Shown piece after piece: positions 3,268 through 62,255 of a stretch of 64,000 nucleotides of DNA. This stretch comes from a virus. The position numbers were made by a program, and so were the translations under genes. Numbering within the stretch: the stretch's first letter is position 1; each line of letters starts with the position of its first letter. The notes under the pieces are model-generated. The model made no database searches. It was not told the DNA's origin and saw only the letters and a program-made list of their open reading frames with translations. The stretch is from the IMG/VR virus record IMGVR_UViG_3300039412_000320; one strand, given 5' to 3'.

Positions 3268-3936
3268 CTAGGCAGCCTTAACTACTATAGCCTTGGGTTC
3301 CTTTAATGGGGAGGAATAACGATGCTCACCCCACCATTGTTTTTTAGCTATTCCTATACGAGAGTTTTTTTGTTGACGAATAAGCTCATTGAGCTTAGCA
3401 TCGTCGGAATAACCCGAGATTTTCCAAAGTCTGCTGGCTGTCATATAGGAAAATCCTAGTTGCTTGCTAATTTCTCTAAAAGTGCATCCCTTAATTCTAA
3501 GATTAATAACGTCGCCTATACGCCCCCAATACTTCTTTTTAGCTTCGGCGGCGTTATACCGATGAGTTTCAATCTTTGGTTTGCCTTTGAGTTTGAAGCT
3601 AATCGAAAGTTTATGTTCCATAGAAGGTACAAAACCGTCATGTCCATCTCCACCCCCAGTTATGTTATATCCAAAAATAGGATTATTAGATTGATATTTC
3701 CCTATGAAATATCTTTCTTGAGCGTTGAGGTCTTGTTTAGATGCCACAAACCCGGATAACAAGCATACTTCAAACGCCGTTTCTCCATACGCTCGAATAG
3801 CTCTATGAAAGTGGGTCTGGCTTCCTCTCTTTGCTTCTTGCTTATGCCTTGACCATCTTTTTGACGGGGTATTTCCCGAAGCCTTTCCGATATAAACTTT
3901 TTGATTTACTAAACATCGTACCAAGTATATAATCAT
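3268..3936 (-). CDS. GIY-YIG homing endonuclease
   Basis: N-terminal IYLVRCLVNQKVYIGKA...KRWSRH...YGETAFEV is the GIY-YIG motif set. It is inserted between two structural genes with 1-2 nt spacing. Confidence 0.8.
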   Translation of the reverse strand: MIIYLVRCLVNQKVYIGKASGNTPSKRWSRHKQEAKRGSQTHFHRAIRAYGETAFEVCLLSGFVASKQDLNAQERYFIGKYQSNNPIFGYNITGGGDGHDGFVPSMEHKLSISFKLKGKPKIETHRYNAAEAKKKYWGRIGDVINLRIKGCTFREISKQLGFSYMTASRLWKISGYSDDAKLNELIRQQKNSRIGIAKKQWWGEHRYSSPLKEPKAIVVKAA

Positions 3937-3938
3937 AC

Positions 3939-6900
3939 CTAAGTTCCTGATGTTAAATAATTTATAGTTACTCTCCCAGCAGAAAAATATTCCGTAGCAC
4001 TCAATGTTATATCTTTAGCACTACTCTCACCCTCTACAACATATGTGACAAAGTAAGACTTCAAAGAGGGGGAGGTGGTATCCGCAGGGATGGTGATGAT
4101 GACCTTTTGAGCATAGGCACTTTGATATTGCGCAGCAAGACCGGGGTCGTTGGTACCGATGATGTAGAAAGAGCCATTCTGTGACGAAACCAAGGGCGTG
4201 GCAGCGGTAGACAGGAAGTTGCTTATTGAAGAGGTACGGGCGTAAGCCTGACCCTCATAGAGCAATCCCACAAACGCTTCGGCAGGTCCGCCACTGGGCA
4301 CCGTGCTATCCGGTAAAATGGGAACGGTAGTGATGAAACTGTGGGCGGGCACCGCTTGTCCGCTAAAGGCCGGGTCATTCGTCAGAGGAGTCCACAGCGT
4401 GCCCGTGGGAATAACAAAGCCGATATCGTAAGAACCATCCGACTTGGCGCACTTGATGAGTGGGATTCCCACCGACTTGACGCCACTTATCGCCTGCACC
4501 AATGAAACGATGCTGGACTGATACAGAGTTCCCGTAGCGCTGTCCAACGCTTGGTCAATGGCGGTGCGCACAGCGGAGTCTACTGTATCCGGTGAAATGC
4601 CACTATTGAGAGTCACCGTCAAGGTGATGTCGATAGGATTGGCAACCATGGCCTTGACAAGGACGCTTGCACCCGCCGCCTTAGTGATGTTTATCTGGTT
4701 AACCAAGATGGGAACGAACGAGGGATACTCGGTCGCAGTGGTGAATGCTTCGGTGTAGAAGTAAGACACCAACACCTGCCCACCGTCTGGGATGCGGCTG
4801 GTCGCATTGGTGCCGAGATTGCGGGCAATGGTCACTGCGCCGGATGTCGTGTCCACGTTAAGAACAAAGTCCACGTTCTCAATCATGACCTCGTAGGCGG
4901 GCGGGCTGACGCTGGTCTGATAGAGGACTTCGATATAGCGGCTGTCATGAGGAACTCCCGCTCCCACCAGTCCGGTGGAGTTGGTGAGGTTGATGGTCCC
5001 ATCCGTATTGTATGCTGCCCCATTCAACGTCAAATCAAACCGGCCATAACTCTCGGGAAGCCACGTATTATACACAAACCCGTTGTTATCAAGGGAGTTT
5101 GCAACGCTGCCATTAAGGGTCTGAGGCTCCATGGAAGCGAAGCTGAGGTTCTCGTGCAGGATAAACTGATTGAAGCTCACCACGACTTGCTGGTTGTTCT
5201 GGATGGAGCTTCCGGTCGCTGTCCCCGTGTCGGAGGCAAAAGCATAATCGCTGTGATTGTAAACGGCAGTGAACTGTGTCCCATTGGAGCTTGCCACGGT
5301 CACATTCTGACCGTTAAGGAAAGAAGCGGATGTAAGTCCGGCAAGCGTGAGGGGCGCTCCTGCTCCAAAGCTGTTGATGCAATTTACGGTGAGGATGTTG
5401 TTGGAGATGGAGATACCTGTAATGGTCTTGGACACGGTGAGTGTTTTAAGGCCGTAGGTAGCGTAGCAGCCGACATAAGGCCCTGCGGGGGTGCCGTAAG
5501 GAGACGGCTCTGGCACCAAGGTGTAATCAGACCCGTTGACATACAGGGTAGACAGGTCCGAAGAACGGACTGAGAGGACATCCCCCAAAACACCACTAGG
5601 GTCAACGGAGATATCCATGGCGGTGCCGATGGTTACAGGTGTAGTGGTGCTAGCGGTGATGGTCACAGTGATGGGGGTTGTAGCGGTGGAGACCACCTGC
5701 ACCATGTCACCCGCCTGATTAGACCCACCATTGAGCAGGAAGTCAGAGGTGTGTACGAGGTCCAACAGGGCCTCGGGGATGGTGCCGGTGAAATTCGTCT
5801 GCCCGATGACCGAGTTGACGTTGGTGACCGGCTGATTCGTGGGGGTATCCACGAGGGGAGACTGGAGCCGGGCATTCAGGAGATAGGTGCCGTTGAATCC
5901 CACGCCCTGCACGGCGGCGAGATTGCTCAGTGGAGCGGCGAGCGTAGGATAAGAAATTCTGACCTGTGTTGCCCCGCTCCCGGAGATGTAGTAGGCATTG
6001 GCGCTGGGATTAAGGATGATGTATCCGCCATTGGTGTCGAACTGTGCCTCACTGATATCAAGGAAGAAGGAGTTGGAAAGCCCTTGAACGAGAAGCTCCA
6101 CTCCTTGGTAGAGAGGCCAATTAAGCGCTTGAAAGTTGGCGCTGGCAACCTGAAACTTGAGTAGGTTGTTGGTAGCCGACACGAGGGTGAGTGGAAGGTA
6201 GGTGCTGTATACTCCCGGAGCACTGGCATTATCATATTCAAACGATACGATGTCATCCTCCTCGGAGGAGGAAGTTCCCTGACAGTAAACGTCCACACAA
6301 CCAAACACGTGCTTTTGCCGAATGTTATCCCAGTCACGAACCATCTCAAGGTCACCGGCTGCTACCACTTCTACCGCAACGATGCCCGGTGTGGATGCTG
6401 CCGTGGTGTAATACCCATTGCGGGTTCCCGAGTCCACTCCAGTAAACTGCCGGTTGACAATGCGAGCGGCGAAGTGAGAGTTGATTTCATCATCAACTCC
6501 GAAGGTAGCCGCCGCAAGGTTGGTGACCGACCACCCTGCCGGGGCATTGGAGCCGATAGAGTTGATAGTCCCCGCTCCCACATTGGTACTGGAGCCGGTG
6601 GTTTGGCAAGATGCCGGAACTGTAACTCCCCACCAACCATACACGGGGTTGTAAAATGAGGCAGCGGAGGATGGGGTGATGGAGGCCGAACCGGTAGTCT
6701 GGAAGTTAATGGATGGGGTAGAGGCGTCTCCTGTGGTAGAACAGATGATGCCAGTAGGAAAGGTGGTGGTCGTTGTGGGCTGGCTATAGGTATAGAAAGT
6801 GAGATTGACGACCGATGGTGTAGCTCCTCCACGAGTGAGACCCACAGACTGTCCGAGATGGTCGAATTGTTGGTCAATGAATGTCTGAGTATCGGCGGCA

Positions 6901-8405: not shown

Positions 8406-9190
8406 TGTTGATTCCCCACTAGCTGCCTAGACGATGTTATCGAAAACGAAACCGAAGACGGCGTAGTCTGATTGCCATAAGAAGTGACGGCGCATTGGGC
8501 GGCTACCGACGTTGGGTCAGGCATCGTTATCGAAATATTTCCTATGTCTTTAAGCATCTCCAAAAGGCTCAAACTCTGCACGGTTCTTTGAGCGGACTGA
8601 ATGTTTTTGATATTCTGGAGCGCATCCATTATCTGTGAAGAGATGTCTGCTTCGGTAATGGTCACCCCAAACTTCTTACCAATGTAACTCCGAATAGCAC
8701 AAGTGAACTGAGGATAAAACGGACACGTAGAGGTGAGAACGAACTTCAACACCTTCTGCACCAACTTGTTCGTATCCCAAACTCGCTGCATGGTGCCATA
8801 CGGAGATATCACAAAGTCATTAAGCTGCCCCGTAGCCGAGCATCGGAGGCAATAATCTTGAAGGGTGATATAACTCACCTCAATCAGGGGAACATACCAC
8901 CTCACCGGCTTGATGAACACTATTTTGTAAAACTGAGCGCTGGTGTTCAGCCGGTTCTCATCCGGGAGAATCTGATAAGCATAGGGATTGTTAGCTCCCG
9001 GCGTTGGAGAAGCCAACTCCCCGCTTATGTAAAGTTGTACGACCTCCTGACCGTTAATCGGAGCACGCATGTTCAAAGCCGGATTTGACGCTAAGTGCAA
9101 CGTCATAAAATCTGTAGTATCAATTACATACCTCTCCCCGTAAATCGTATGAGGACATGCTTGGAGACCGGTATTGAAGTCATAACTCAT
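8402..9190 (-). CDS. Hypothetical structural protein
   Basis: 262-aa ORF with a 4-nt overlap (ATGA) to the upstream gene, inside the structural operon. Confidence 0.5.
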   Translation of the reverse strand: MSYDFNTGLQACPHTIYGERYVIDTTDFMTLHLASNPALNMRAPINGQEVVQLYISGELASPTPGANNPYAYQILPDENRLNTSAQFYKIVFIKPVRWYVPLIEVSYITLQDYCLRCSATGQLNDFVISPYGTMQRVWDTNKLVQKVLKFVLTSTCPFYPQFTCAIRSYIGKKFGVTITEADISSQIMDALQNIKNIQSAQRTVQSLSLLEMLKDIGNISITMPDPTSVAAQCAVTSYGNQTTPSSVSFSITSSRQLVGNQQ

Positions 9191-41698: not shown

Positions 41699-42406
41699 AT
41701 GGTATTTAGAATATACGCAATGAAAATCAGAAGTCACACCACCGAGAAAAGCTGGATTGTCTACCTTATAACCAACAAAGTAAATGGGAAGGTGTATGTT
41801 GGTCAAACATCCTGTGGTTTGAAAAGGCGATGGGCACTCCATTGTTCCCCCTCGGCGGGAAACAAACATCTGTTGAACTCTATTCGTAAATATGGCCGTG
41901 ATTCCTTTGAAATCAGCATTATCCACGGTCCGGGGCTTACCTTTGAAGAATCTAGCACCTTAGAGAAACGGGAAATATCTAAGAGGAAGTCAACCGACCA
42001 CCAATTCGGATACAACCGAAGTACGGGGGGTGAAGGAGGTGCTAATGGTATGAGATTCCCCTCCGAAACTTACCCCAAAAGATTGGGTAGAAAATGCTCT
42101 GTCGAAACCATCAAAAAACTACGGGATGCTGCAATTGGCAGAAAGTGCTCACCCGAAACAAGAGTGAAATTGAGGCTGGCACTAAAGGGTAAGAAACCAT
42201 CTGCTAAGGCTATAGAAAACTCCCGTAATGTGTGGATTGGAAGAAAGCACTCACCGGAATCGAAAAGAAAAATAGGGGCGGCACAAAGGGAAGTTAGGGA
42301 GGTAAAACCGAGAACACCTGAAACAATTACTAAACTGAAAGCGGCTTGGAAACGACGTAAATTAAAAAACCCAGAAATGGTGTTCCCGTTTCAAAAGGAA
42401 AAATAG
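41699..42406 (+). CDS. GIY-YIG homing endonuclease
   Basis: WIVYLITNKVNGKVYVGQTSCGLKRRWALH is nearly identical in its GIY-YIG core to the ORF at 15674-16450. An alternative start lies at ATG 41720. The stop abuts the helicase start (TAGTATG). Confidence 0.8.
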   Translation: MVFRIYAMKIRSHTTEKSWIVYLITNKVNGKVYVGQTSCGLKRRWALHCSPSAGNKHLLNSIRKYGRDSFEISIIHGPGLTFEESSTLEKREISKRKSTDHQFGYNRSTGGEGGANGMRFPSETYPKRLGRKCSVETIKKLRDAAIGRKCSPETRVKLRLALKGKKPSAKAIENSRNVWIGRKHSPESKRKIGAAQREVREVKPRTPETITKLKAAWKRRKLKNPEMVFPFQKEK

Positions 42407-48332: not shown

Positions 48333-49091
48333 ATGAAACAAGTATGTGGAGTTTACTGTATTTCTCTTGTTAATACAGAGCGCAACTATGTCGGGCAAGC
48401 CAAAGATGTTTTCAAACGTTGGAGGGAGCATCGGTGGGCTTTATCTAAGGGTGTGAATAAATCCAAAAGATTGCAAAGGGCGTGGAACAAATACGGTTCC
48501 GCTGCTTTTCTATTTAGGGTTTTGGAAGAATGTCCGTGCGACCCACTTGTGTTACTTACGAGAGAACAATATTGGATTGATGAACTTCAAGCCCACAAGA
48601 AAGGATTTAACTGTTCTCCGGTTGCTGGTTTGTCTACCTTGGGGGTTAAGTTTTCCGCTTCAACTAAGGCTAAGATATCAGAAAAAGCCAAAGGAAGGGT
48701 GATATCGGAAGAAACAAGAAGGAAAATTAGTGATGCCTTGAAGGGTCGATTATTTTCCTCAGAGCATAGGGCTCGATTATCGAAGGTAAGTACTCAAAGA
48801 ATGCTTACCTCTCCTGATAGATTTATTATCGGAAAGTGGTCTCACAACCACCCTCGTTTTGGAAAGGACAACTCGTTTTATGGTAAGCATCACTCGGATG
48901 ATGTAAAATTAATAATGTCAGAAAAACATCAAGGGAAAACAGCCTCTTCTGAGCTTTGTGCTTTACGCTCTAAAAATGCAACTGGGAAAAACAACCCCAT
49001 GTTTGGAAGAAAACATTCAGAAGAGACTAAGGAAAAAATTAGGCAAGCCCGAATTTTACGGGTTACGAGTATTGTAAGACAGGAAAGCTGA
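48333..49091 (+). CDS. GIY-YIG homing endonuclease with NUMOD3-like repeats
   Basis: GVYCISLVNTERNYVGQAKDVFKRWREH is the GIY-YIG motif; it also has repeated S(E/P)ETRRKIS / HSEETKEKIRQAR modules. It sits immediately downstream of nrdJ. Confidence 0.8.
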   Translation: MKQVCGVYCISLVNTERNYVGQAKDVFKRWREHRWALSKGVNKSKRLQRAWNKYGSAAFLFRVLEECPCDPLVLLTREQYWIDELQAHKKGFNCSPVAGLSTLGVKFSASTKAKISEKAKGRVISEETRRKISDALKGRLFSSEHRARLSKVSTQRMLTSPDRFIIGKWSHNHPRFGKDNSFYGKHHSDDVKLIMSEKHQGKTASSELCALRSKNATGKNNPMFGRKHSEETKEKIRQARILRVTSIVRQES

Positions 49092-51202: not shown

Positions 51203-51281
51203 ACTCCGGTGAGTCGAGCGGCTAAGACACCTGCCTTACAAGCAGGTAAACTCGTGGGTTCGAGTCCCACCCGGAGTACCA
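51203..51281 (+). tRNA. tRNA, anticodon UAC (Val) by manual fold
   Basis: Acceptor ACTCCGG/CCGGAGT. Anticodon arm CCTGC-CTTACAA-GCAGG has a loop identical to E. coli tRNA-Val(UAC). T arm GTGGG-TTCGAGT-CCCAC. CCA is encoded. Confidence 0.75.
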
Positions 51282-51292
51282 AAATTAAATAT

Positions 51293-51370
51293 GCCCCGGT
51301 AGCTTAGTGGCTTCAAAGCGCCACCTTCACACGATGGAGAACACAGGTTTGAGTCCTGTTCGGGGCACCA
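51293..51370 (+). tRNA. tRNA, anticodon CAC (Val?) by manual fold
   Basis: Acceptor GCCCCGG/TCGGGGC. D stem GCTT/AAGC. Anticodon arm CCACC-TTCACAC-GATGG (one mismatch). T arm ACAGG-TTTGAGT-CCTGT. CCA is encoded. Confidence 0.7.
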
Positions 51371-51604
51371 AGTTCTGGTTGACAGTAATGTCTACCAGAT
51401 GTCAACGTATACGGCTAATCCGGCTGACGACCGGTGTTATCGGCGACTTACGTTAAGAGCCGCCCTGTTTTAAGCCTTGTGGCGGGTAACCGCAGCGGTC
51501 ATAGACGACTGTAAATAGAAGGGCATCCAAGGCTGGCCTCTCCCGTTCGATTTGGGATACTGTGCTCATGGGTATGGTAAGCCAGCCCACAAGGCGAAAG
51601 ATTT

Positions 51605-51678
51605 GCAGGGGTAGCACAATGGCAGTGCGGGACGTTGCCAACGTTCATACGGGAGTTCGATTCTCCTCCTCTGCTCCA
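51605..51678 (+). tRNA. tRNA-Gly (GCC)
   Basis: Acceptor GCAGGGG/CCTCTGC. D arm GCAC-AATGGCA-GTGC. Anticodon arm GGACG-TTGCCAA-CGTTC. T arm GGGAG-TTCGATT-CTCCT. CCA is encoded. Confidence 0.85.
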
Positions 51679-51685
51679 AGTTTGT

Positions 51686-51759
51686 GGGGCCATCGTCTAA
51701 TGGGAGGACTTCTGCCTTGCACGCAGAAAACCGGGGTTCGACCCCCCGTGGTTCCACCA
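51686..51759 (+). tRNA. tRNA-Ala (UGC)
   Basis: Acceptor GGGGCCA/TGGTTCC with G3:U70. Anticodon arm TCTGC-CTTGCAC-GCAGA. T arm CGGGG-TTCGACC-CCCCG. CCA is encoded. Confidence 0.85.
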
Positions 51760-51763
51760 AAGT

Positions 51764-52312
51764 TTAGGCATACTTAGACATCCCTCGGGATTGTCTTCCG
51801 TTGCCTTTATTTCGACCACAGAAAGTTGGAGTCTGGCTGTTGCAGTTTGGACAAGTTAAGCGGACGTTGTCTGGTTTACAGTTTCCAGCATCTCCATCAA
51901 TGTGGTCTACGACTGGAATAAGGGGTTTGTTGCACCAAACGAGCAGCATACCGCAGATTTCACAGTTATTTCCTCTTTTTGAGATGAGGATTTTGCGGAT
52001 GGTTTTTCGGTGCTTGACTCCCCCTAGTTCAAACTGTTCTAGGGCCTTTGCATGGAGGTAGTGCCCACGTCCTTTCGGTTCTGGTTTCGGTTTTTTTGGT
52101 CTCTTTGCGTTGCTTGCTTTTGCCGAACAAGAACTGGAGCAATATGTGTTATCAAACCGTTTGTTGTAGGGGATGGATGCTTCGCATACGGGGCAACGTT
52201 TAGGGCTGAGCATGTATTTAGCTTCATTTTTAGCAGTCCGGCTCTTGTTGCTGCATGCTAGCGAACAATAGATGTGGTTTGCTGGTGTATTACAGACTGG
52301 GCATTGATTCAT
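51764..52312 (-). CDS. HNH homing endonuclease
   Basis: VDHIDGDAGNCKPDNVRLTCPNCN is the classic HNH core; there are several CxxC pairs upstream. Start placed at the internal Met (MNQCPVCN). The longer ORF-track start at 52363 would overlap the tRNA-Gly at 52326. Confidence 0.65.
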   Translation of the reverse strand: MNQCPVCNTPANHIYCSLACSNKSRTAKNEAKYMLSPKRCPVCEASIPYNKRFDNTYCSSSCSAKASNAKRPKKPKPEPKGRGHYLHAKALEQFELGGVKHRKTIRKILISKRGNNCEICGMLLVWCNKPLIPVVDHIDGDAGNCKPDNVRLTCPNCNSQTPTFCGRNKGNGRQSRGMSKYA

Positions 52313-52325
52313 AGTTGTTTTTTGG

Positions 52326-52400
52326 GCGGGATTGATGTCAATGGTAGCATGCCACGCTTCCAACGTGGTCGTACCGATTCGACTTCGGTATCCCGCTCCA
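52326..52400 (+). tRNA. tRNA-Gly (UCC)
   Basis: Acceptor GCGGGAT/ATCCCGC. Anticodon arm CCACG-CTTCCAA-CGTGG. T arm ACCGA-TTCGACT-TCGGT. CCA is encoded. Confidence 0.85.
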
Positions 52401-52446
52401 ACCTCCTATAAAAGGAGGTCGAAAGTCGGTTTTCGCTAAAGTTTAG

Positions 52447-52520
52447 GCGGGTATGGTATATTGGGTGTGCCCAACCTTCCCAAGGTTGTGAAACGGATTC
52501 GATTCCCATGTCCCGCTCCA
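52447..52520 (+). pseudogene. Degenerate tRNA-Gly-like element (anticodon CCC), probable pseudo-tRNA
   Basis: Its ends (GCGGGTA...GTCCCGCTCCA) match the neighbouring Gly tRNAs and it has a clean anticodon arm CAACC-TTCCCAA-GGTTG. The T stem (ACGGA/CCCAT) does not pair and acceptor pairs 6 and 7 are mismatched. It also contains TGGTATATT, an extended -10-like sequence. Confidence 0.4.
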
Positions 52521-52681
52521 AGATTGTAGTCACTCTAAGGGCTGTCGAAGCTGACGAGTGGCGAGGTTCTACCAGCAGGGTCCCTCAGTAAGGGGGACTG
52601 TGGTGGTTCCCCTGAAAAGGGACCCCGAGCAGTAGAACCTGCGGATGACTAGCTTAACCAGCCGGTTGTCCCGAATTTTGC

Positions 52682-52783
52682 GGGTGTAGCTTAATCAGAG
52701 CGGTGGTCCACCAGACCACGCCGTGTCCGGGCTTGATATCAAGTCAGGCATGTTGTACCGGCTGAACGCCGGTCGCCCGCTCC
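52682..52783 (+). ncRNA. tRNA-Gly-like element with a ~37-nt insertion between the anticodon arm and T arm
   Basis: It shares its 5' end GCGGGTGTAG and 3' end CGCCCGCTCCA with tRNA-Gly(CCC) at 58750. The acceptor pairs, the anticodon-like arm is GTGGT-CCACCAG-ACCAC, the T-like arm is ACCGG-CTGAACG-CCGGT, and there is a long extra region containing the palindrome CTTGATATCAAG. Confidence 0.4.
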
Positions 52784-52790
52784 AGTTTGT

Positions 52791-52865
52791 GGGCCTGTAG
52801 CTCAGCGGGAGAGCGCTTGCTCGACAAGCAAGAGGTGGTAGGCTCGACCCCTACCGGGCGCACCA
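52791..52865 (+). tRNA. tRNA, anticodon GAC (Val?) with C33
   Basis: Acceptor GGGCCTG/CGGGCGC (6 of 7 pairs). D arm GCTC-AGCGGGA-GAGC. Anticodon arm CTTGC-TCGACAA-GCAAG. T arm GTAGG-CTCGACC-CCTAC. CCA is encoded. The unusual C at position 33 lowers confidence in the anticodon call. Confidence 0.65.
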
Positions 52866-52877
52866 AAGTTTGGGACC

Positions 52878-52958
52878 GGAGCTTAAGCAGAACCTTCTGC
52901 CATCGGAAGAGCGTAGTGTTTACAACACTTGGGGGTGGGAATCCCTCCGGCTCCACCA
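52878..52958 (+). ncRNA. tRNA-like element ending in CCA, non-canonical
   Basis: 3' end CGGCTCC-A-CCA with T-like arm GGGGG-TGGGAAT-CCCTC and a 5' partner GGAGCTT. The interior (hairpins GCAG-AACCTT-CTGC and GTGTT-TAC-AACAC) cannot be folded into a standard cloverleaf by hand. Confidence 0.3.
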
Positions 52959-53044
52959 AGAACGACGCTGGGTTCGTGCTCCAGAAGTGGGTGACACGAC
53001 GCCAAGGAGAGGGGTTAACAGCCCGGAGAGTAGGACCAGCGTCA

Positions 53045-53695
53045 TCAAGTTTTGGGTACGTCGCCTAATGGGATGGCACTTCCCTCGCACGGAAGAACGA
53101 TTGCGGGTTCGACTCCCGCCGTATCCACCAAGTTTTTGAAAGTATATAGTCCATCCTTAGCGATGAAGTGTTCATCTTCATGGCAGGTGGGGCAAAGGAT
53201 TTCAAGGTTTTCAGGTTTGTTGTTTTTTCGATTGCGGTCTATATGGTGAACCCGCAGAACTGGGGTAAAGCGGGCGTATCCACAACGATTGCATTTTTTT
53301 GGATGATGTTTGAATGCAATTTCTCGATACGCCGCTCCACCGTTAGTGTAATGGTCTGGTCTCATATCATGAAATGCCTCACCGGATAGGATAGACTGAG
53401 CGTGGTCTTTACATGCCCGTGAGCAAAAAAGCAGACCAGATTTTGATGCTTTAATTTGAGCGGGGCGTTTTTCAAAGCTAGTAAAGCAAAATGAGCATTT
53501 TACAGTAACTCTTGTTCTACTAGCAACCCCCGAGCACTCTCTTGAGCAGTATTGACCATTAGAGTGTTTGGGTAAGTAAAAAGGCCTTTTGCATGTGGGA
53601 AGTGTACAGTAATGAAGAAACAGCCTTCTTGGCTTCCCATCGTAGAGTGTAGATATTATTGATTCTTCGGGTGGATTTGATATGTCAGTATGCAA
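53045..53695 (-). CDS. HNH homing endonuclease
   Basis: RVHHIDRNRKNNKPENLEILCPTCHEDEH is the HNH core. The stop-to-stop ORF runs across the tRNA-Ala(CGC) gene on the opposite strand. Confidence 0.65.
   Translation of the reverse strand: MHTDISNPPEESIISTLYDGKPRRLFLHYCTLPTCKRPFYLPKHSNGQYCSRECSGVASRTRVTVKCSFCFTSFEKRPAQIKASKSGLLFCSRACKDHAQSILSGEAFHDMRPDHYTNGGAAYREIAFKHHPKKCNRCGYARFTPVLRVHHIDRNRKNNKPENLEILCPTCHEDEHFIAKDGLYTFKNLVDTAGVEPAIVLPCEGSAIPLGDVPKT
53054..53130 (+). tRNA. tRNA-Ala (CGC)
   Basis: Acceptor GGGTACG/CGTATCC with G3:U70. Anticodon arm CTTCC-CTCGCAC-GGAAG. T arm GCGGG-TTCGACT-CCCGC. CCA is encoded. Confidence 0.8.
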
Positions 53696-53737
53696 GTGTG
53701 ATTACCTCCACCTATGTATTTGATAGTTGATTTTCAC

Positions 53738-53811
53738 GGCCTGTTCGTCTATCGGCAGGACAGCAGATTCTCAATCTGTAAAGAGGGGTTCGATTCCCCT
53801 ACGGGCTACCA
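53738..53811 (+). tRNA. tRNA, anticodon CUC (Glu) by manual fold
   Basis: Acceptor GGCCTGT/ACGGGCT. Anticodon arm GCAGA-TTCTCAA-TCTGT. T arm AGGGG-TTCGATT-CCCCT. CCA is encoded. Confidence 0.75.
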
Positions 53812-53818
53812 AATTCAT

Positions 53819-53895
53819 GGGGTCGTAGACAAGTGGCTTAAGTCGCCAGATTCTCAATCTGGAAACCGTGGGTTCAAATCCCATCGGCCCTGCCA
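53819..53895 (+). tRNA. tRNA, anticodon CUC (Glu?) by manual fold; second copy with a different body
   Basis: Acceptor GGGGTCG/CGGCCCT. Anticodon arm CCAGA-TTCTCAA-TCTGG. T arm GTGGG-TTCAAAT-CCCAT. Discriminator G. CCA is encoded. Confidence 0.75.
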
Positions 53896-53907
53896 AGTGG
53901 AGATGTT

Positions 53908-54105
53908 GTGGCAACGTTGACGCTGGACATAAACGAGGAAGCGAAGTTCAAGGCTTGGGAGAAAGAGCACAAGAAAAAGTGCAAACTCCGGCCCGGTACG
54001 TGTGGTGACCTTTACAGCTTCAACATCTGCCCAAGTGGTATTGGGGATTTTATCAGTGTTCACTGCCCGTGTGGAGCACAAGCAGACCTGACGGGAAGTT
54101 TGTAA
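53908..54105 (+). CDS. Small Cys-rich protein (zinc-ribbon-like)
   Basis: 65-aa ORF with a GTG start after GGAG. Contains CKLRPGTCGD...CPSGIGDFISVHCPCG. Confidence 0.35.
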   Translation: MATLTLDINEEAKFKAWEKEHKKKCKLRPGTCGDLYSFNICPSGIGDFISVHCPCGAQADLTGSL

Positions 54106-54375
54106 AAGGCAAGACCATGAGCCTATGGATAACATCATTCACAAACTGCTGGTATACGAGCCAATTCGTATATTTGATGAGTTTAGCCACTGGATTGTGG
54201 TAGGATGGATGATTCTCCATACGTTGAGTTGGGCGATAGTGGAAGGATGCCGACTCTACTGGTCAACGAAAATAAAGATTAGGCGCATTTTCATACAAGA
54301 TGTCGCCGAAGAGTAACGCACCTGTCGCCAAGTGGAAAGGCATAATTTGAACTACCAACCCCCTTTATAGGGGTT

Positions 54376-54888
54376 ATGATGCTTATTTGCAAAAATTGCG
54401 GTGGGTATATTCCATCAAGGGTAAATGTTGATGGGAAAATAAAAAAGCTGAACGGTCGCAGGTATTGTTTATCCTGTAGCCCATTTAAGGGAAAGAAATT
54501 TAATTATGAAACTGACCGGGATGAGAATAGAAATTTCCACTGCCGCTTATGTGGTCAGAACACCGGTCCTCGCAGGCGTATGTGTAATACCTGTGTATCC
54601 CGCATTAGACGTTTTCGAGCTAAACGTACAGCCGTAAAGTGGCTTGGAGGAAAATGCAATCGGTGTGGATGGGTCGGAGACATTGCGGCTTTTGAGTTTC
54701 ACCACCCCGGAGACAACAAAGAGTTCGATATTGGTACGGTTAGTAACAGAGCATGGGCAACGATAGTCAAAGAATTAAAAAAATGTGAATTACTCTGTTC
54801 CAACTGTCATCGTACCGAACATCATGGCATCCGTGATGAGAATTTCTTAAAAATAGCGGATGAATATGGTGGAAAAATTTATGTTTAG
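54376..54888 (+). CDS. HNH homing endonuclease
   Basis: N-terminal CxxC pairs. C-terminal FEFHHPGDNKEFDIG...CELLCSNCHRTEHH is the HNH core. Confidence 0.7.
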   Translation: MMLICKNCGGYIPSRVNVDGKIKKLNGRRYCLSCSPFKGKKFNYETDRDENRNFHCRLCGQNTGPRRRMCNTCVSRIRRFRAKRTAVKWLGGKCNRCGWVGDIAAFEFHHPGDNKEFDIGTVSNRAWATIVKELKKCELLCSNCHRTEHHGIRDENFLKIADEYGGKIYV

Positions 54889-54889
54889 T

Positions 54890-54963
54890 GACTCGGATTC
54901 CGAATGGTTAGGAGGCGGTCTGCAAAACCGTTTAAGTGGGTTCGATTCCCATCCGGGTCTCCA
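54890..54963 (+). tRNA. tRNA-Cys (GCA)
   Basis: Acceptor GACTCGG/CCGGGTC. Anticodon arm GCGGT-CTGCAAA-ACCGT. T arm GTGGG-TTCGATT-CCCAT. CCA is encoded. The gene starts 2 nt after the HNH stop. Confidence 0.85.
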
Positions 54964-54969
54964 GTTTAA

Positions 54970-55046
54970 GCACGGGTACCCAAGCGGCTTAAGGGACAGG
55001 TCCGCAAAACCTGCATTCATAGGTTCAAATCCTATCCCGTGCTCCA
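54970..55046 (+). tRNA. tRNA, anticodon GCA-like (Cys?) with C33
   Basis: Acceptor GCACGGG/CCCGTGC. D arm CCC-AAGCGGCTTAA-GGG. Anticodon arm CAGGT-CCGCAAA-ACCTG. T arm ATAGG-TTCAAAT-CCTAT. CCA is encoded. Confidence 0.65.
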
Positions 55047-55675: not shown

Positions 55676-56026
55676 TGGGGGCGTTCTGGTTTCGACGGGA
55701 GCGCTCATTGCAGGAAGGCACGCCGGGAGGTTACCCTGCCCGTAACAAGGGTTAACAACGCAATTGCCACAGCGCAATATGCATTTGCTTAATCGCTAGA
55801 TTAGGCACGCTTGCTCTGCTTTAGCCTGTCGGGTAGAGGCCAAGCGCCGATAGAGAGGCTGCGACCGGGGATGCAGCCGATATCCGGCGAGATAAAGGCT
55901 TGCACCGTGGTTCTGATATGCCTGTTTCAGCAGAGTCATGGCAAAGAGCAGTACGAAGCAGGATAAGCGTGTAGTCTTCTTGTTGTGACACTTTTCGGAC
56001 CTGGGTTCAAATCCCAGCGCCTCCAC
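55676..56026 (+). ncRNA. ssrA: tmRNA (transfer-messenger RNA)
   Basis: 5' end GGGGGCGTTCTGGTTTCGACGGG matches the tmRNA consensus GGGGCUGAUUCUGGAUUCGACGGG. The 3' tRNA-like end CTGGG-TTCAAAT-CCCAG CGCCTCC A CCA pairs with the 5' end. An internal tag ORF GCA ATT GCC ACA GCG CAA TAT GCA TTT GCT TAA encodes (ANN)AIATAQYAFA*. Confidence 0.8.
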
Positions 56027-56208
56027 CAAAAAATTTATGGCTTCCGCCAAATGTTCCAAATGCAAGCATCGTAAATACAAAAAGCCCTGCACCGTAAGGG
56101 TCAAGGTCAAGGGGTGGATGAAGAGTATCCCGCCCGGATGGCAACAGGATTATGAACCCTGCGGGTGCAAGGAGACGGTGTGAGTAATTGCGACCGCTGA
56201 TATCCATT

Positions 56209-56820
56209 ATGAGTTGCCACGCTCACCGTCGCTGGCAGCAGCAACTCAGGGAAACATGGTTGAGAGAGTGCCCGGTTGATTATCGGTTTTTCTTGGGTAG
56301 TCCCAAATTGGAAAATGCTGATGATGATGAGGTTTCGCTGAATGTTTCTGACACATACGGAGACCTCTCATCCAAGGTCCAAGCTGCATATCAATGGGTG
56401 ATAATGTACAGCTATGACCACGTTTTTAAGTGTGATGTTGATACCTATGTTTGCACCCCTCGGTTACTCCGGTCGGGGTTTGAGCGGCATGACCATATAG
56501 GACAACGGGGTGTGGGGGAAAATAACCAACCCTACGGAGGCTCCGGGTACTGGCTCAGTAGGAAAGCGTTAGAGTTTCTTGCGTCAGCGCCCTGCTTAAA
56601 GGACACCCGTTGCTACAACGATGAGGATTGGTGGGTATGGGCAACGCTGTCATTTAATAGCGTTTGTCCCACAGAGCACGATGGTCGTTACAGTATGACG
56701 GAGGGAAGGGTCCCTCTCCCGGAAAACGACATCATCACTTACCACCCACACACACTTACCACCGAAGAACGTTTCATGGGCATTCAAATGGTCCACGAAA
56801 AGGCCAAGGAGATTAGATGA
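56209..56820 (+). CDS. GT31-family (Fringe/beta-1,3-galactosyltransferase-like) glycosyltransferase
   Basis: HRRWQQQLRETW fits the GT31 signature RR..IR.TW. It also has a DxD-like KCDVDTYV and YGGSGYWLSRKAL (GT31 GGGyvlSr motif). Start taken at the ATG at 56209; the ORF track starts at TTG 56188. Confidence 0.6.
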   Translation: MSCHAHRRWQQQLRETWLRECPVDYRFFLGSPKLENADDDEVSLNVSDTYGDLSSKVQAAYQWVIMYSYDHVFKCDVDTYVCTPRLLRSGFERHDHIGQRGVGENNQPYGGSGYWLSRKALEFLASAPCLKDTRCYNDEDWWVWATLSFNSVCPTEHDGRYSMTEGRVPLPENDIITYHPHTLTTEERFMGIQMVHEKAKEIR

Positions 56821-56959: not shown

Positions 56960-57205
56960 AAGTTTGGAAAAGGTTTGTGGACTGGACAACTGCTGCCCCG
57001 CAAGGGGGAGAGGAAAGTCGGAGCTACACAGAGCACCGTGCGGGGTAACGCCCCGGCGCAGTAGCAATACTGCGACAATTAGAGCAACAGAGACGAGCCG
57101 GTTAAGTCCGGGTGAAACGGGCAATCTTCACGGGGAGCAATCTCGAATAGGAGGGGATGAACCTGCTCGGTTCGCTATAACCCTCGGGTTGAGAGCTTGA
57201 CCCCC
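56960..57205 (+). ncRNA. rnpB: RNase P RNA-like element (bacterial type A-like, apparently minimised)
   Basis: Collinear matches to E. coli M1 RNA conserved regions. (1) GAGAGGAAAGUCGGAGCUACACAGAGCA matches GGAGGAAAGUCCGGGCUCCAUAGGGCA. (2) Hairpin CGGGG-UAACG-CCCCG matches CCAGG-UAACG-CCUGG, with compensatory changes. (3) GCAACAGAGA is an exact 10-mer. (4) CCGGGUGAAACGGG matches AGGGUGAAAGGGUG. (5) GAUGAACCUGCUCGGUUCGC matches GACAGAACCCGGCUUAUCGG, with AGUCGG/UCGGUU able to form P4. It has a short GCAA-capped P3. Boundaries are approximate. No credible protein ORF covers the region. Confidence 0.45.
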
Positions 57206-57323
57206 CTAGTAATAGGGGGGGCTAGATTGATGGTTGTCGCCTCGCAAGAGGAACAAAACTCCGCTTATAAGTCCACAAATAATTTAGTGATTTGACTACG
57301 GCAACCTTATTAGAGAGATTGCC

Positions 57324-57788
57324 ATGAAACAAAGTAAGTCACAAAAGCGGTTGAATGCGGACTATACAAGACAGTTAGGTATGAGTCCGGGGTCAGCTAC
57401 CCATAAGCTTACTCGAAACCTTCTTTTTAGGTACATCCAACAAAACCACGATGATGTTTGTTATCGCTGTGGTTCAAAGATTGAGACGTTAGCATCTTTT
57501 AGCATTGAACACAAAGAGCCTTGGCGTAATTCGGACCCGAATCTGTTTTGGGATTTAGAAAATATTTCGTTTGCCCATAAAAAATGCAATATTCAGGCAG
57601 CCCAACACATCGGAAAAAGAGTAATAGGTCCACCGGGAACAAGCTGGTGCTCAAATCACAAAATGTTTTTTCCTGTTGATAGGTTTTATAAAAACCGGTC
57701 AATGTGGAATGGGTTACACCGTCAGTGTAAAGAGTGTCATAAAAATTGGAAGAAGGCTTATAGGTCCACAAAATTTTCAGTATTATAG
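57324..57788 (+). CDS. HNH homing endonuclease
   Basis: CYRCGSKIE...FSIEHKEPWRNSDPNLFWDLENISFAHKKCN is an HNH core with a zinc ribbon. Confidence 0.65.
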   Translation: MKQSKSQKRLNADYTRQLGMSPGSATHKLTRNLLFRYIQQNHDDVCYRCGSKIETLASFSIEHKEPWRNSDPNLFWDLENISFAHKKCNIQAAQHIGKRVIGPPGTSWCSNHKMFFPVDRFYKNRSMWNGLHRQCKECHKNWKKAYRSTKFSVL

Positions 57789-58076: not shown

Positions 58077-58712
58077 ATGAAATCCGATTCCGCATTTATC
58101 GCCGTAGTTTTAGACCGTTCCGGTTCCATGAGCATCGTCAAGGATGCGACCATCGACGGCTTCAACGAGTTCATCAATGGGCAGAAGCAGCAGCCCGGAG
58201 AAGCCCATCTCCTGTTGGTCCAATTCGACTCCATTGACCCCCATGAAATCGTTATCGACGCACCTTTGACGGACGTTCCAAATCTGACCAAGGACACCTT
58301 CTCCCCACGGGAGAACACTCCCCTGCATGACGCCATGGGGTGGACGATTATCGAGGTTGGCGAGCGGCTGGAAAAGATGCCGGAAGAGGAGCGCCCGGAG
58401 AAGGTCATCATCGTCATCCTCACGGATGGTCATGAGAACGCCAGCAAGGAATTCACGAAGGAAAATGTGGCGAACATGGTGAAGCACCAGACAGAGAAGT
58501 ACAACTGGACCTTCATCTTCTTGGGAGCCAATCAGAACGCCGTTCTGACCGCCAAGGGATTCAACATTTCGGCGGATACTTCCATGAGCTACAACAACAA
58601 CCCCTCCTCCACTCAGGAGGTATACCTTGCCGTAAGCGCCAACACCAGCGCCGTCCGGCGTGGTCTCAAGGCGTCGTTCACTTCCGCCCAACGGAAGGCG
58701 GCAAAACAGTAG
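58077..58712 (+). CDS. von Willebrand factor A (vWA) domain protein
   Basis: AVVLDRSGSM is the MIDAS DxSxS motif; it is followed by IIVILTDGHEN and a Rossmann-like alternation. RBS AGGAGG. Confidence 0.7.
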   Translation: MKSDSAFIAVVLDRSGSMSIVKDATIDGFNEFINGQKQQPGEAHLLLVQFDSIDPHEIVIDAPLTDVPNLTKDTFSPRENTPLHDAMGWTIIEVGERLEKMPEEERPEKVIIVILTDGHENASKEFTKENVANMVKHQTEKYNWTFIFLGANQNAVLTAKGFNISADTSMSYNNNPSSTQEVYLAVSANTSAVRRGLKASFTSAQRKAAKQ

Positions 58713-58749: not shown

Positions 58750-58826
58750 GCGGGTGTAGTTCAGTCCGGTAGAACGCCAGCTTCCCAAGCTGGATGTCGT
58801 GGGTTCAAATCCCATCGCCCGCTCCA
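58750..58826 (+). tRNA. tRNA-Gly (CCC)
   Basis: Acceptor GCGGGTG/CGCCCGC. D arm GTTC-AGTCCGGTA-GAAC. Anticodon arm CCAGC-TTCCCAA-GCTGG. T arm GTGGG-TTCAAAT-CCCAT. CCA is encoded. Confidence 0.85.
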
Positions 58827-60803: not shown

Positions 60804-62255
60804 ATGCGCAACCCACTGTTGTGTCCAAAGACGGCTATCTTGACTTCACCCAGTTATCTGGAGTCTCTCTATTCCCTCCTTTCGGGTGACCAAAGAAATG
60901 ACCGGTCCGCTTATCTCGAAGCCCGTCAGCATCTTGGCTCCGCCATCAACACCGTATCGGCAAAGATTCCCCCCAAGAGTCGGTTGACCAGAGATATCCG
61001 CTTTGCTCGCTGGGATATGGAGACCGCTAACGCCTTCGCCAAATCGGGAGATTGGGGCGCAGCAGCAGATAGCCAGCTACACGCTGTCTGGAAACTCCAG
61101 AACGTCGTAGCGGCCCTCCAGCGCAGCAAAAAGGCATACGGGTATGATGTTTGTCTTACCGCTGACTCTCAACTTCCGCTGCTGGACGGAACAGAAATAG
61201 CCATAGTTGACCTTCTAGGAAAGGACCATTTCTGGGTTTATTCAATAAACGAGAAGGGAATGCTTAGACCCGGATACGGGCATGACGCCCGACTGGTTGA
61301 AAAAGATGCCCCCCTACTAGAAGTAAGGTTGGACAACGGTAAAACTATAAGGTGTACCTTTACCGAGAGATTTATGCTAAGAGGGGGAGGATACAAACGG
61401 GCAGCAGAACTTATCCCCGGAGATTCCTTGATGCCTCTCTACAGAGACTTGGCTCCGATTGCTTTTGAGGGTAATGAATATGAAAGGACATACGAGCCGG
61501 GTAGAGAATCGTGGAAGTTTACCCATCGTTTTGCGGAAGCTAGATGTCCAAAGGGGTATGTAAGACATCATAAAGATTTGAATCGCTTCAACAATTCCCC
61601 TGACAATCTCGCTGTTATAACTTGGGAAGAACATCAGAAATTGCATCAAGAGTTGGGAGTTCCAGTTACAGATAAAGGGCGGACGGCACGTAGCCGTAAC
61701 ATGTCCAAAATTAACTCTGACCGCAAGGGGAAACCACGTCCTTGGGCACACTTTCCTCATCCGTGGGTGAATAAAGAAGAAAAGGCCAATATTTTGGTGA
61801 AATACAGGGAGTTGTTGGGGGAAGAGGGGTTTGTTGTTGCCCAGAAGCACAGAAGTCAACTAGCTACCCACAAACGCTGGCACACAGACCGCCAGATAGT
61901 CTCTGCCACTTGTTTGCTTTGTGCCTCCGTTAATCATAAGGTGGTATCAGTCGCATCTGCTGGTACTGCTGATGTATATGATTTTATTGTTGATAAGTAT
62001 CATAATTTCGCTTTGAGTGCCGGGGTTTTTGTACATAACAGTGGGCAAACACAGGGAGAAATTTTCAACGGCTCGGAGGCAATTGCCAACCGGGAAAACC
62101 AGAAGAATATTGACGACACGGCACAGCCGTTTGAGCAGCACCAGAATGTTAAAAATCCACTAAATCTAACAAGGGACTGGGAGGCGGAGAACGACTACCC
62201 CTCGCTCGCTGAAAAGAAGAGCAAGCGGATTCACTGGCCTCCCCGACTGAGATAA
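60804..62255 (+). CDS. Small hypothetical protein interrupted by an HNH-containing intein
   Basis: Exteins are aa 1-116 and the last 71 aa. The central 296 aa show intein termini. Confidence 0.65.
61152..62039 (+). mobile_element. Intein with embedded HNH endonuclease domain
   Basis: Begins [21 protein letters not shown] (block A). Internal [27 protein letters not shown] is an HNH motif. Ends [24 protein letters not shown] followed by +1 Ser (block G, HN|S). Confidence 0.75.

Follow-up and report, generated by a model that had tools for sequence, protein, structure and literature searches.

tmRNAs have been reported in huge phages, some of which carry both a tmRNA and SmpB (Al-Shayeb and colleagues, PMC7162821). 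They were present in 402 of 18,146 phage genomes (2.3%; PMC9004378), phage G encodes one with the tag AKLNITNNELQVA (PMC12484599), and a full Rfam scan of two circularised megaphage genomes returned only tRNAs and one tmRNA (PMC8172020). In bacteria such as E. coli and mycobacteria, ssrA and the RNase P RNA gene rnpB are unlinked (PMC6582537). The tRNA cluster of T4 with SegB, as far as it is described where PMC6582537 cites it, is a stable-RNA block with interspersed homing endonucleases and mosaic inheritance.

We analyzed a 64,000-nt stretch of viral DNA, referred to here as the window (IMG/VR record IMGVR_UViG_3300039412_000320). Its tmRNA gene resembles the one-piece ssrA of the E. coli type (RF00023) in length class (352 nt), tRNA-Ala-like domain, G3:U70 pair, and CCA end, and it shares with bacterial ssrA the P2 helix, PK1, a resume codon that starts at nt 90 and has A at −4, a stop codon within helix 5, PK2 to PK4, and a tag with a hydrophobic, alanine-rich C-terminus. 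It differs from bacterial ssrA in being phage-encoded, in having a tag, (A)ATAQYAFA, that ends in FA and not LAA, in having no smpB nearby, and in its position within a tRNA array beside an RNase P RNA gene. Like the phage tmRNAs reported before, it is complete and belongs to a large phage with many tRNA genes; unlike the permuted tmRNAs of marine phages it is one-piece, and unlike the tmRNA of the megaphage genomes (PMC8172020) it is linked to an RNase P RNA. No blastn similarity was found to any tmRNA in 50,697 GenBank phage records. At ssrA prophage attachment sites, tmRNA sequence also lies beside phage genes; however, those sites are 3′ fragments or duplicated ends at a junction with an integrase, whereas the present gene is whole, internal, and unduplicated.

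The RNase P RNA shares with bacterial rnpB (RF00010) the P1–P4 core, conserved motifs, the P15 GGU, and P18, and differs from it in being phage-encoded, only 310 nt long, and reduced to a minimal P12, with P13/P14 gone. Comparable losses of RNase P RNA elements have been reported in CPR bacteria (PMC8172020). The whole block is similar to the T4 cluster in its organization; T4, however, depends on host RNase P and host tmRNA, while the present cluster brings both RNAs.

The tmRNA gene and the surrounding RNA-gene block

ARAGORN identified 13 tRNA genes and one tmRNA gene in the 64-kb window (Table 1). The Rfam scan of the whole window matched RF00023 over the same tmRNA interval, covering model positions 1–374 with 134.5 bits against a gathering score of 47 (E = 1.9e-52). 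The sequence-only reading had proposed a phage-borne tmRNA at 55676–56026; both programs called the gene, so its identity was borne out and the locus stood, while the ends had to be shifted by one to two bases.

Table 1 Features of the tmRNA gene and the stable-RNA block. Gene positions are numbered with window position 55677 as nt 1.
Feature	Window position	Strand	Gene position (nt)	Basis or remark
12 tRNA genes: Val x3, Gly x3, Ala x2, Glu x2, Cys x2	51203–55046	+		ARAGORN, Rfam
One-piece tmRNA gene, 352 nt	55677–56028	+		ARAGORN and RF00023 full model
Acceptor stem	55677–55683 (GGGGGCG) with 56018–56024	+	1–7 with 342–348	Includes G3:U70
P2 helix		+	20–47 with 291–321	Structure drawn on window sequence
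PK1	55724–55756	+	S1 48–51/63–66, S2 53–60/73–80	
Tag frame GCC ACA GCG CAA UAU GCA UUU GCU UAA = ATAQYAFA*	55766–55792	+	90–116	ARAGORN
Resume codon GCC	55766–55768	+	90–92	
Helix 5 hairpin, 8 bp, loop GCUA	55787–55806	+	111–118 with 123–130	
Stop codon UAA	55790–55792	+	114–116	
PK2	55808–55860	+	132–141/159–170 and 147–151/180–184	
PK3	55865–55903	+	189–196/204–211 and 197–202/221–227	
PK4	55905–55962	+	229–238/256–265 and 245–250/281–286	
T arm CUGGG-UUCAAAU-CCCAG	56001–56017	+	325–341	
Discriminator A; encoded CCA	56025; 56026–56028	+		
Antisense ORF, 104 aa, TTG start	55796–56110	−		Artefact
210-aa ORF between tmRNA and RNase P RNA	56188–56820	+		Called publicly as a 203- to 210-aa gene
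Bacterial type-A RNase P RNA, 310 nt, short P12, without P13/P14	56974–57283	+		RF00010
tRNA-Gly(ccc), final RNA gene of the cluster	58750–58826	+		ARAGORN, Rfam

Direct reading of the acceptor stem, with 5′ GGGGGCG against 3′ CGCCUCC, gave the pairs G1-C, G2-C, G3-U, G4-C, G5-C, C6-G, and G7-C; the alanine identity pair G3:U70, for which a check had been suggested, is therefore present. The tRNA-Ala-like T arm, acceptor, and CCA previously read at the 3′ end were confirmed in the same way. The T arm has a tRNA-like T loop, and a D-loop analogue, UUCGAC, occurs without a D stem; both fit the Rfam consensus. Every helix and all four pseudoknots can form in the window tmRNA and, with different sequence, in the distant viral contig L090. 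The resume codon lies just 3′ of the formable PK1, and the earlier concern about reconciling it with pseudoknot architecture falls away. The UAA stop codon sits in the 5′ strand of helix 5, an arrangement that L090 repeats with different sequence.

The in-frame reading that ends in ...YAFA and a stop codon is real. The frame encodes the eight residues ATAQYAFA, to which the alanine carried by the tmRNA is added, giving (A)ATAQYAFA. Upstream of the resume codon GCC, position −4 is A and position −2 is U, in agreement with the known rule for this context. The nucleotide number of the resume codon, 90, is the same as in E. coli tmRNA, and we take the A at −4 to be the equivalent of E. coli A86, a residue reportedly described by Williams and co-workers in 1999.

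All of the RNA genes (tRNA, tmRNA, and RNase P RNA) are plus-strand genes located between 51203 and 58826. CCA is encoded by 13 of the 13 tRNA genes and by the tmRNA, and U precedes the first base (−1) of nine tRNAs and of the tmRNA; for the tmRNA this base is also U in the relatives L003 and L090. A permissive Rfam scan of 49–61 kb returned no further RNA families, and a scan for sigma-70 promoters and terminators around the RNA genes did not rise above shuffled expectation. The region is interspersed with homing-endonuclease genes of the GIY-YIG and HNH types, and one of its ORFs appears to contain an intein.

Among the protein-coding frames, the 210-aa ORF gave only a sub-threshold Pfam match. 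A 42%-identical relative of this ORF, on contig L005, was set aside; no RNA genes were present in the 13 kb of that contig. The opposite-strand ORF at 55796–56110 had been regarded as an artefact of the tmRNA, and we agree: it had no Pfam match, none of the six public assemblies calls it as a gene, and in L003 unrelated sequence stands in place of its N-terminal third, leaving a frame of 71 aa. L003 also has a 157-aa ORF with an AGLIDGEG (LAGLIDADG-like) motif abutting the 3′ end of its tmRNA. Assignment of this ORF to the LAGLIDADG class was not retained, as the motif was seen by eye only and Pfam gave no match.

Conservation among related phages

The tmRNAs of the window and of its closest relative (L002/L003) are 97.7% identical. 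By comparison, the 210-aa ORF that follows retains only 84% amino-acid identity in L003, and the DNA immediately upstream and downstream of the tmRNA could not be aligned between the window and L002/L003; the tmRNA is thus an island of conservation amid mosaic surroundings. In L002/L003 the T arm is two bases longer, ARAGORN gives no call, and Rfam scores 124.4 bits. Given this T arm, some copies of the tmRNA may be less than fully active.

Two more distant relatives, L090 and L185, were reached through the neighboring RNase P RNA. On L090, a 114-kb viral contig, the order is tRNA-Cys, tRNA-Ile(tat), tmRNA, RNase P RNA, tRNA-Gly(ccc), and a metallophosphoesterase gene; L185 (78 kb) carries tRNA-Ile(tat), the tmRNA, and then, in the same orientation as the tmRNA, the RNase P RNA. 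Gene order from the tRNA array through tmRNA, RNase P RNA, and tRNA-Gly(ccc) to metallophosphoesterase is common to the window, L003, and L090, with tRNA-Gly(ccc) in the same position in all three. On a further contig, L184, the tmRNA and the RNase P RNA are adjacent in reversed order.

Covariation was examined in a plain MAFFT alignment of four distinct phage tmRNAs, using a structure derived from one of the four. In this alignment, standard pairs occupied 86.0% of 379 cells, compared to 39.6–50.9% when the pairing partners were slid by one to three columns, and changes on both sides of a pair were found in 23 of 95 pairs, compared to 3–7 in the slid controls. The observed covariation score was reached by none of 500 shuffles. 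Both-side changes occurred in P2, in the T stem, and in one or both stems of each pseudoknot: two S2 pairs of PK1 were altered on both sides, relatives exchange U-A for C-G or G-C in PK4, and one T-stem position shows four different pair types. In PK3, a C-to-U change in L002 still leaves a G-U pair. The acceptor pairs were invariant across the four tmRNAs, as were C(−5) and A(−4) ahead of the resume codon.

The tags read ATAQYAFA in the window and L002, ANMQYAFA in L185, and AKPLAMYAMA in L090. Within the QYAFA shared by the window and L185, the only differences are CAA/CAG and GCA/GCG, and L090 retains Y-A-x-A through UAU/UAC and GCU/GCC. The C-terminal Y-A-F/M-A is therefore kept across the relatives with synonymous nucleotide differences, which, judged by codon comparison, is the pattern that a translated frame under peptide-level selection would leave. 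Taken with the covariation, the sequence and structure determinants of a tmRNA are all present and are under selection in related phages.

Proposed activity and alternative readings

We consider it likely that the gene encodes a functional, standard one-piece tmRNA of a tailed phage of ~340 kb, placed in a same-strand block with 13 tRNA genes and an RNase P RNA. The steps proposed here are taken over from established bacterial tmRNA biology. RNase P would cut the 5′ end of the precursor, which has U at −1 and an encoded CCA like the neighboring tRNA genes, and the mature tmRNA would be alanylated by the host alanyl-tRNA synthetase through G3:U70. Host SmpB and EF-Tu would then carry the charged tmRNA to ribosomes stalled on broken mRNAs, translation would restart at GCC, AATAQYAFA would be appended to the nascent chain, and release would occur at UAA. 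The tagged chain would probably be handed to a host AAA+ protease. The benefit to the phage may be that ribosomes are kept available during a long infection in which mRNA is heavily cleaved and host ssrA transcription has perhaps stopped. Maturation of the phage tRNAs and the tmRNA of the block would most likely be the task of the phage RNase P RNA.

The partner protein was searched for with an HMM made from 31 SmpB sequences of bacterial loci. Neither the window, translated in six frames, nor the flanks on related viral contigs, mostly 10–20 kb each, gave an SmpB (best E = 0.2), and tblastn on the same window and flanks was negative. From these negative results the SmpB of the host is the likely partner, unless the protein is encoded in the remaining ~270 kb of the phage genome. 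A scan of IMG/VR with the SmpB alignment was swamped by E. coli-like prophage ends and was uninformative.

A search for YAFA followed by UAA in 185,579 species genomes, which by design sees only tags ending on this stop codon, gave 54 loci; ARAGORN called a tmRNA in 43 and a YAFA-ending tag in 37. These tmRNAs belong mostly to Erysipelotrichales and related Bacilli, plus four Patescibacteria, and YAFA-ending tags are ordinary cellular tags in these groups. The 22 bacterial tmRNAs that were aligned are only 36–46% identical to the phage tmRNA, which therefore is no recent capture from them. The tag was also tried as a pointer to a donor or host and rejected; the aligned bacterial tmRNAs singled out neither. 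The ssrA tag of Mesoplasma ends in ...YAFA as well. In Mesoplasma, ssrA-tagged proteins are degraded by Lon and not by ClpXP (PMC8138137), and Lon may serve as a lead, rather than a result, on the protease that reads the phage tag.

It is unlikely that the RNA is made but does not enter normal trans-translation, either as a decoy for SmpB or alanyl-tRNA synthetase or as a rescue-only tmRNA whose tag does not direct degradation. Such a role would suit the failure to find a phage SmpB in the window and the relatives' flanks, and the short tag ending in FA instead of the common LAA. Lambda-P22 hybrid phages reportedly need the charging of tmRNA and not tagging. Selective tagging of host proteins has been speculated upon (PMC9004378). 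However, a decoy has no need of a conserved tag frame, yet Y-A-F/M-A is kept through synonymous changes, the context of the resume codon does not vary, and the stop codon is still found within helix 5. The occurrence of YAFA-ending tags as normal tags in Erysipelotrichales, related Bacilli, and Patescibacteria, together with degradation of ssrA-tagged proteins by Mesoplasma Lon (PMC8138137), also speaks against a tag that does not lead to degradation.

A second question is where the tag starts. The sequence-only reading gave it as (ANN)AIATAQYAFA, with resumption upstream at GCA 55760 or earlier, so that the peptide would be (A)AIATAQYAFA or longer. The frame is indeed open there, GCA 55760–55762 is an alanine codon, and L185 likewise has GCA at this place; the codons upstream of the tag, however, read V-N-N-A-I and not A-N-N-A-I. 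ARAGORN set the start at gene nt 90, GCC falls on the consensus resume codon in the Rfam alignment, and the conserved C(−5) and A(−4) point to the same codon. GCA 55760 has C at −4 where GCC has A, and the equivalent codon in L090 is ACA, which is not alanine, with the ARAGORN start in that contig also at nt 90. The longer tag is thus quite improbable, and because the upstream GCA lacks A at −4 and is replaced by a non-alanine codon in L090, the tag is taken as (A)ATAQYAFA.

We regard it as very improbable that the gene is maintained chiefly as a DNA target, be it an attP-like site for host ssrA or a homing-endonuclease target spread by gene conversion. Differences between the tmRNAs of the window and L002/L003 do cluster in one place only, the T arm, a classic crossover site, and endonuclease genes of the HNH and GIY-YIG types, as well as the AGLIDGEG-containing ORF that abuts the tmRNA 3′ end in L003, are close at hand. 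A DNA target, however, would not yield compensatory changes across helices and pseudoknots or synonymous-only changes in the tag. The ORFs scanned around the RNA genes and in the structural half of the window included no integrase, the 157-aa ORF was without a Pfam match, and homing endonucleases account for the mosaic flanks and not for the persistence of the RNA.

The genomic setting bears on whether the gene belongs to the phage at all. PHROG matches to a baseplate wedge protein (E = 1.7e-26) and a tail fibre (E = 1.7e-40) flank the tmRNA region; the long minus-strand ORFs of 0–39 kb and the ORFs past 60 kb correspond to baseplate wedge, tail proteins, and tail fibre, and ORFs at 42–48 kb match ribonucleotide reductase (E = 1.8e-162) and a DnaB-like helicase. 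Phage genes therefore lie on both sides of the tmRNA, which is ~55 kb into the window, with 8 kb left to its other end. The identical sequence was found on a metagenomic contig of 338,351 bp (ENA ERZ27250039), the tmRNA and RNase P RNA were 100% identical in six other assemblies of the same phage, and contigs from many samples encode an exact match to the 211-aa protein of 58077–58712. With 25 nt of the tmRNA 5′ end as a probe, two IMG/VR viral contigs were retrieved, one of which (316,945 bp) is from a close relative with the same tRNA array, tmRNA, and RNase P RNA. A second copy of the tmRNA 3′ end (last 23 bases) was not found in the window with three mismatches allowed, no integrase turned up in the scanned ORFs, which covered the surroundings of the RNA genes and the half of the window with structural genes, and no host genes were found among the neighbors of the tmRNA. 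The tmRNA is a complete gene internal to a viral genome, away from any phage-host junction. The phage-borne character proposed earlier is upheld by the PHROG neighbors, the 338,351-bp contig, and the single 3′ end, and the single full copy, with no integrase or host genes found beside it, does not fit an ssrA attachment site.

ssrA is a well-known and common site of prophage integration. That a host ssrA was caught at the edge of an integrated prophage, or was joined to phage DNA by misassembly, is nevertheless exceedingly improbable: hundreds of IMG/VR viral contigs do end in smpB beside ssrA, and prophage ssrA fragments are discussed in PMC9004378, but the prophage-junction reading is untenable because the gene is full-length with phage genes on either side, its 3′ end is unduplicated in the window, neither integrase nor smpB was found nearby, the arrangement was assembled independently in at least six samples and is kept in diverged viral contigs, and the 22 bacterial tmRNAs with or near YAFA-ending tags are so distant in sequence.

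The RNase P RNA gene and the meaning of the cassette

The RNase P RNA, which had not featured in the sequence-only reading, starts 945 bases 3′ of the tmRNA. It matched RF00010 over model positions 1–367 with 185.7 bits against a gathering score of 100. The RNA retains the P1–P4 core, the GAGGAAAGUC motif, P18, and the J11/12 and J12/13 motifs ACAGAGA and GGUGAAA; in P15/L15, CGGGUUGAGAGCUUGA aligned to the consensus CGGGUAGG..GCUUGA, including the CCA-binding GGU. The specificity domain is non-canonical, with P12 cut to ~4–5 bp and 43 model positions absent, those of P13/P14. The CCA-encoding tRNA and tmRNA genes and the U at −1 fit a type-A ribozyme. An RnpA-like ORF was not detected in the window by tblastn, a weak test with an approximate query.

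A pattern describing the shortened form hit 16 viral contigs in IMG/VR, the longest of 455,708 bp. Rfam confirmed a full RNase P RNA within a dense tRNA array at all 10 of the loci that were long enough among the 11 newly found, and a more general motif returned canonical-length copies in tRNA arrays on viral contigs of 114 and 369 kb. RNAalifold, applied to 13 phage copies with 50% mean column identity, gave 71 pairs, 48 of them with compensatory changes, and the long-range P4 helix was among the compensated pairs. At least five distinct contigs (window, L002/L003, L090, L184, and L185) have the tmRNA beside the RNase P RNA. Taken together, tRNAs, tmRNA, and RNase P RNA make this locus a conserved stable-RNA cassette of phages.

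The RNase P RNA had no blastn match in the 50,697 GenBank phage records. Microcystis phage MaAM05, which was matched with another phage RNase P RNA as the query, was rejected as a precedent; the matched region lies amid fabI, engB, mtgA, and glyS and is probably host DNA. No report of a phage- or virus-encoded RNase P RNA was found in the mostly open-access literature within our reach. The RNase P RNA component of the cassette looks new.

Phage tmRNAs are already established, and the present tmRNA therefore adds an example to a known class. It contributes a new tag family, A-x-x-Q-Y-A-F-A, and gives unusually clean signs of selection on both structure and tag in phages. The RNase P RNA ~1 kb away would carry more weight than the tmRNA alone, as a pairing for which no description was found. 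We lean slightly towards a huge-phage lineage with a self-contained cassette, in which dense tRNA arrays and a tmRNA would be matured by the phage's own shortened type-A RNase P ribozyme. If this is true, the phage would supply the substrates and the catalytic RNA for 5′ processing, plus ribosome rescue, its translation supply would be partly independent of host transcription, and the cassette would hold the first virus-encoded RNase P RNA, as far as the literature search reached. An active ribozyme would be a naturally minimized RNase P RNA, and it would make testable whether huge phages mature their own tRNAs and tmRNA after the shutdown of host RNA synthesis. Phage takeover of translation would then widen from tRNAs, tmRNA, and translation factors to RNA processing.

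RNase P RNA in the window and on other viral contigs

A full-length RNase P RNA of the bacterial type A, 310 nt long (Rfam family RF00010, 185.7 bits), was located 945 bases downstream of the tmRNA in the window; its P12 is minimal, and P13/P14 are missing. Comparison with the copy of the closest relative phage (L002) by blastn gave 94% identity, and the differences include compensatory changes in P18, a hairpin. This shortened form was present on 16 viral contigs from IMG/VR, 2-456 kb in length (L002, L073, L074, L077, L090, and L175-L185), and covariation was observed in 48 of the 71 predicted pairs among 13 copies. At every locus that had been scanned with Rfam and was long enough for the gene, the RNase P RNA lay within a tRNA array. 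Copies of canonical length were found in the tRNA arrays of two further contigs, L086 (IMGVR_UViG_3300005529_000001, 369 kb) and L092 (114 kb). Our literature search found no published description of a phage RNase P RNA.

On the huge viral contig L086, two protein-coding features were also noted close to the RNase P RNA and its tRNA array: a protein with an RF-1 domain, similar to ArfB, an alternative ribosome-rescue factor, and an ORF with a GTP-binding domain. The 9.5 kb of this contig that were analysed contained no tmRNA. An RNase P RNA-like stretch also occurs in the GenBank record of 'Microcystis phage MaAM05' (MW495066.1, 110323-120478), where its neighbours are fabI, engB, mtgA, and glyS; this record probably includes host (cyanobacterial) DNA.

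Coordinates of features in the window and at related loci
Feature	Locus	Position	Strand
RNase P RNA, type A	window	56974-57283	+
tRNA genes (13)	window	51203-55046 and 58750-58826	
Homing-endonuclease genes	window	41699-42406, 48333-49091, 57324-57788, 60804-62255	
Homing-endonuclease genes	window	51764-52363, 53045-53695	-
48-aa Cys-rich ORF	window	56037-56183	+
tmRNA of the relative	L002 (same as L003)	3697-4050 (8644-8997)	
157-aa ORF	L003	8999-9472	-
Long tRNA-Ile(tat)	L090	508-601	
Long tRNA-Ile(tat)	L185	12058-12150	
RF-1-domain protein	L086	3975-4565	-

The tmRNA and its flanks

Cellular tmRNA tags ending in YAFA, such as GNRTNYAFA, ANNNVNYAFA, and GNQNTNYAFA, came mainly from Erysipelotrichales and related Bacilli and from Patescibacteria (bacterial loci L013-L065); for several tmRNAs of Catenibacterium, Kandleria, and Eggerthia, ARAGORN chose implausibly long tag frames.

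ARAGORN made no tmRNA call on the copy in the relative (L002/L003), which differs from the window copy almost exclusively in the T arm, two bases longer and carrying compensatory changes. Its 3' end is abutted by a 157-aa ORF that contains the LAGLIDADG-like motif AGLIDGEG, and the DNA at this site differs in the window. The concentration of the differences in the T arm, together with the abutting ORF and the unlike window DNA, suggests gene conversion by a homing endonuclease, but the ORF has no Pfam match. In the window phage, a 48-aa Cys-rich ORF (CxxC...C...CxC), absent from L003, starts 9 bases past the tmRNA CCA.

On the 5' side, an unusually long tRNA-Ile(tat) of 93-94 nt directly precedes the tmRNA in two more distant viral contigs, L090 and L185. 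A homologous sequence, not called by ARAGORN, was found upstream of the tmRNA in L003 (about 8530-8600); in the window it is missing, and its site is taken by a 67-aa ORF and a 100-nt spacer.

Homing-endonuclease genes and tRNA arrays

Numerous homing-endonuclease genes, two of them GIY-YIG/NUMOD3 and several HNH, occur in and near the RNA cluster of the window. The ORF at 60804-62255 (483 aa) matched intein-splicing and HNH_3 domains, and in some of the public assemblies of this phage (L007, L009) a 216-aa HNH gene is missing.

CCA is encoded in all 13 tRNA genes of the window, and the base after it is A or G. The tRNA-Gly(ccc) at 52447-52520 was called by ARAGORN, yet it scored 27.3 bits in Rfam against a gathering score of 29, and a second tRNA-Gly(ccc), at 58750, scored 70.3 bits; the former may be a decaying duplicate. 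The codons read by the 13 genes nearly all start with G (Val, Ala, Gly, and Glu), with Cys in addition, and similar sets were found in the arrays of the relatives L077, L177, and L179. Those of L086 and L092 serve chiefly Leu, Pro, His, Arg, and Thr. It appears that the arrays are sorted according to codon family.
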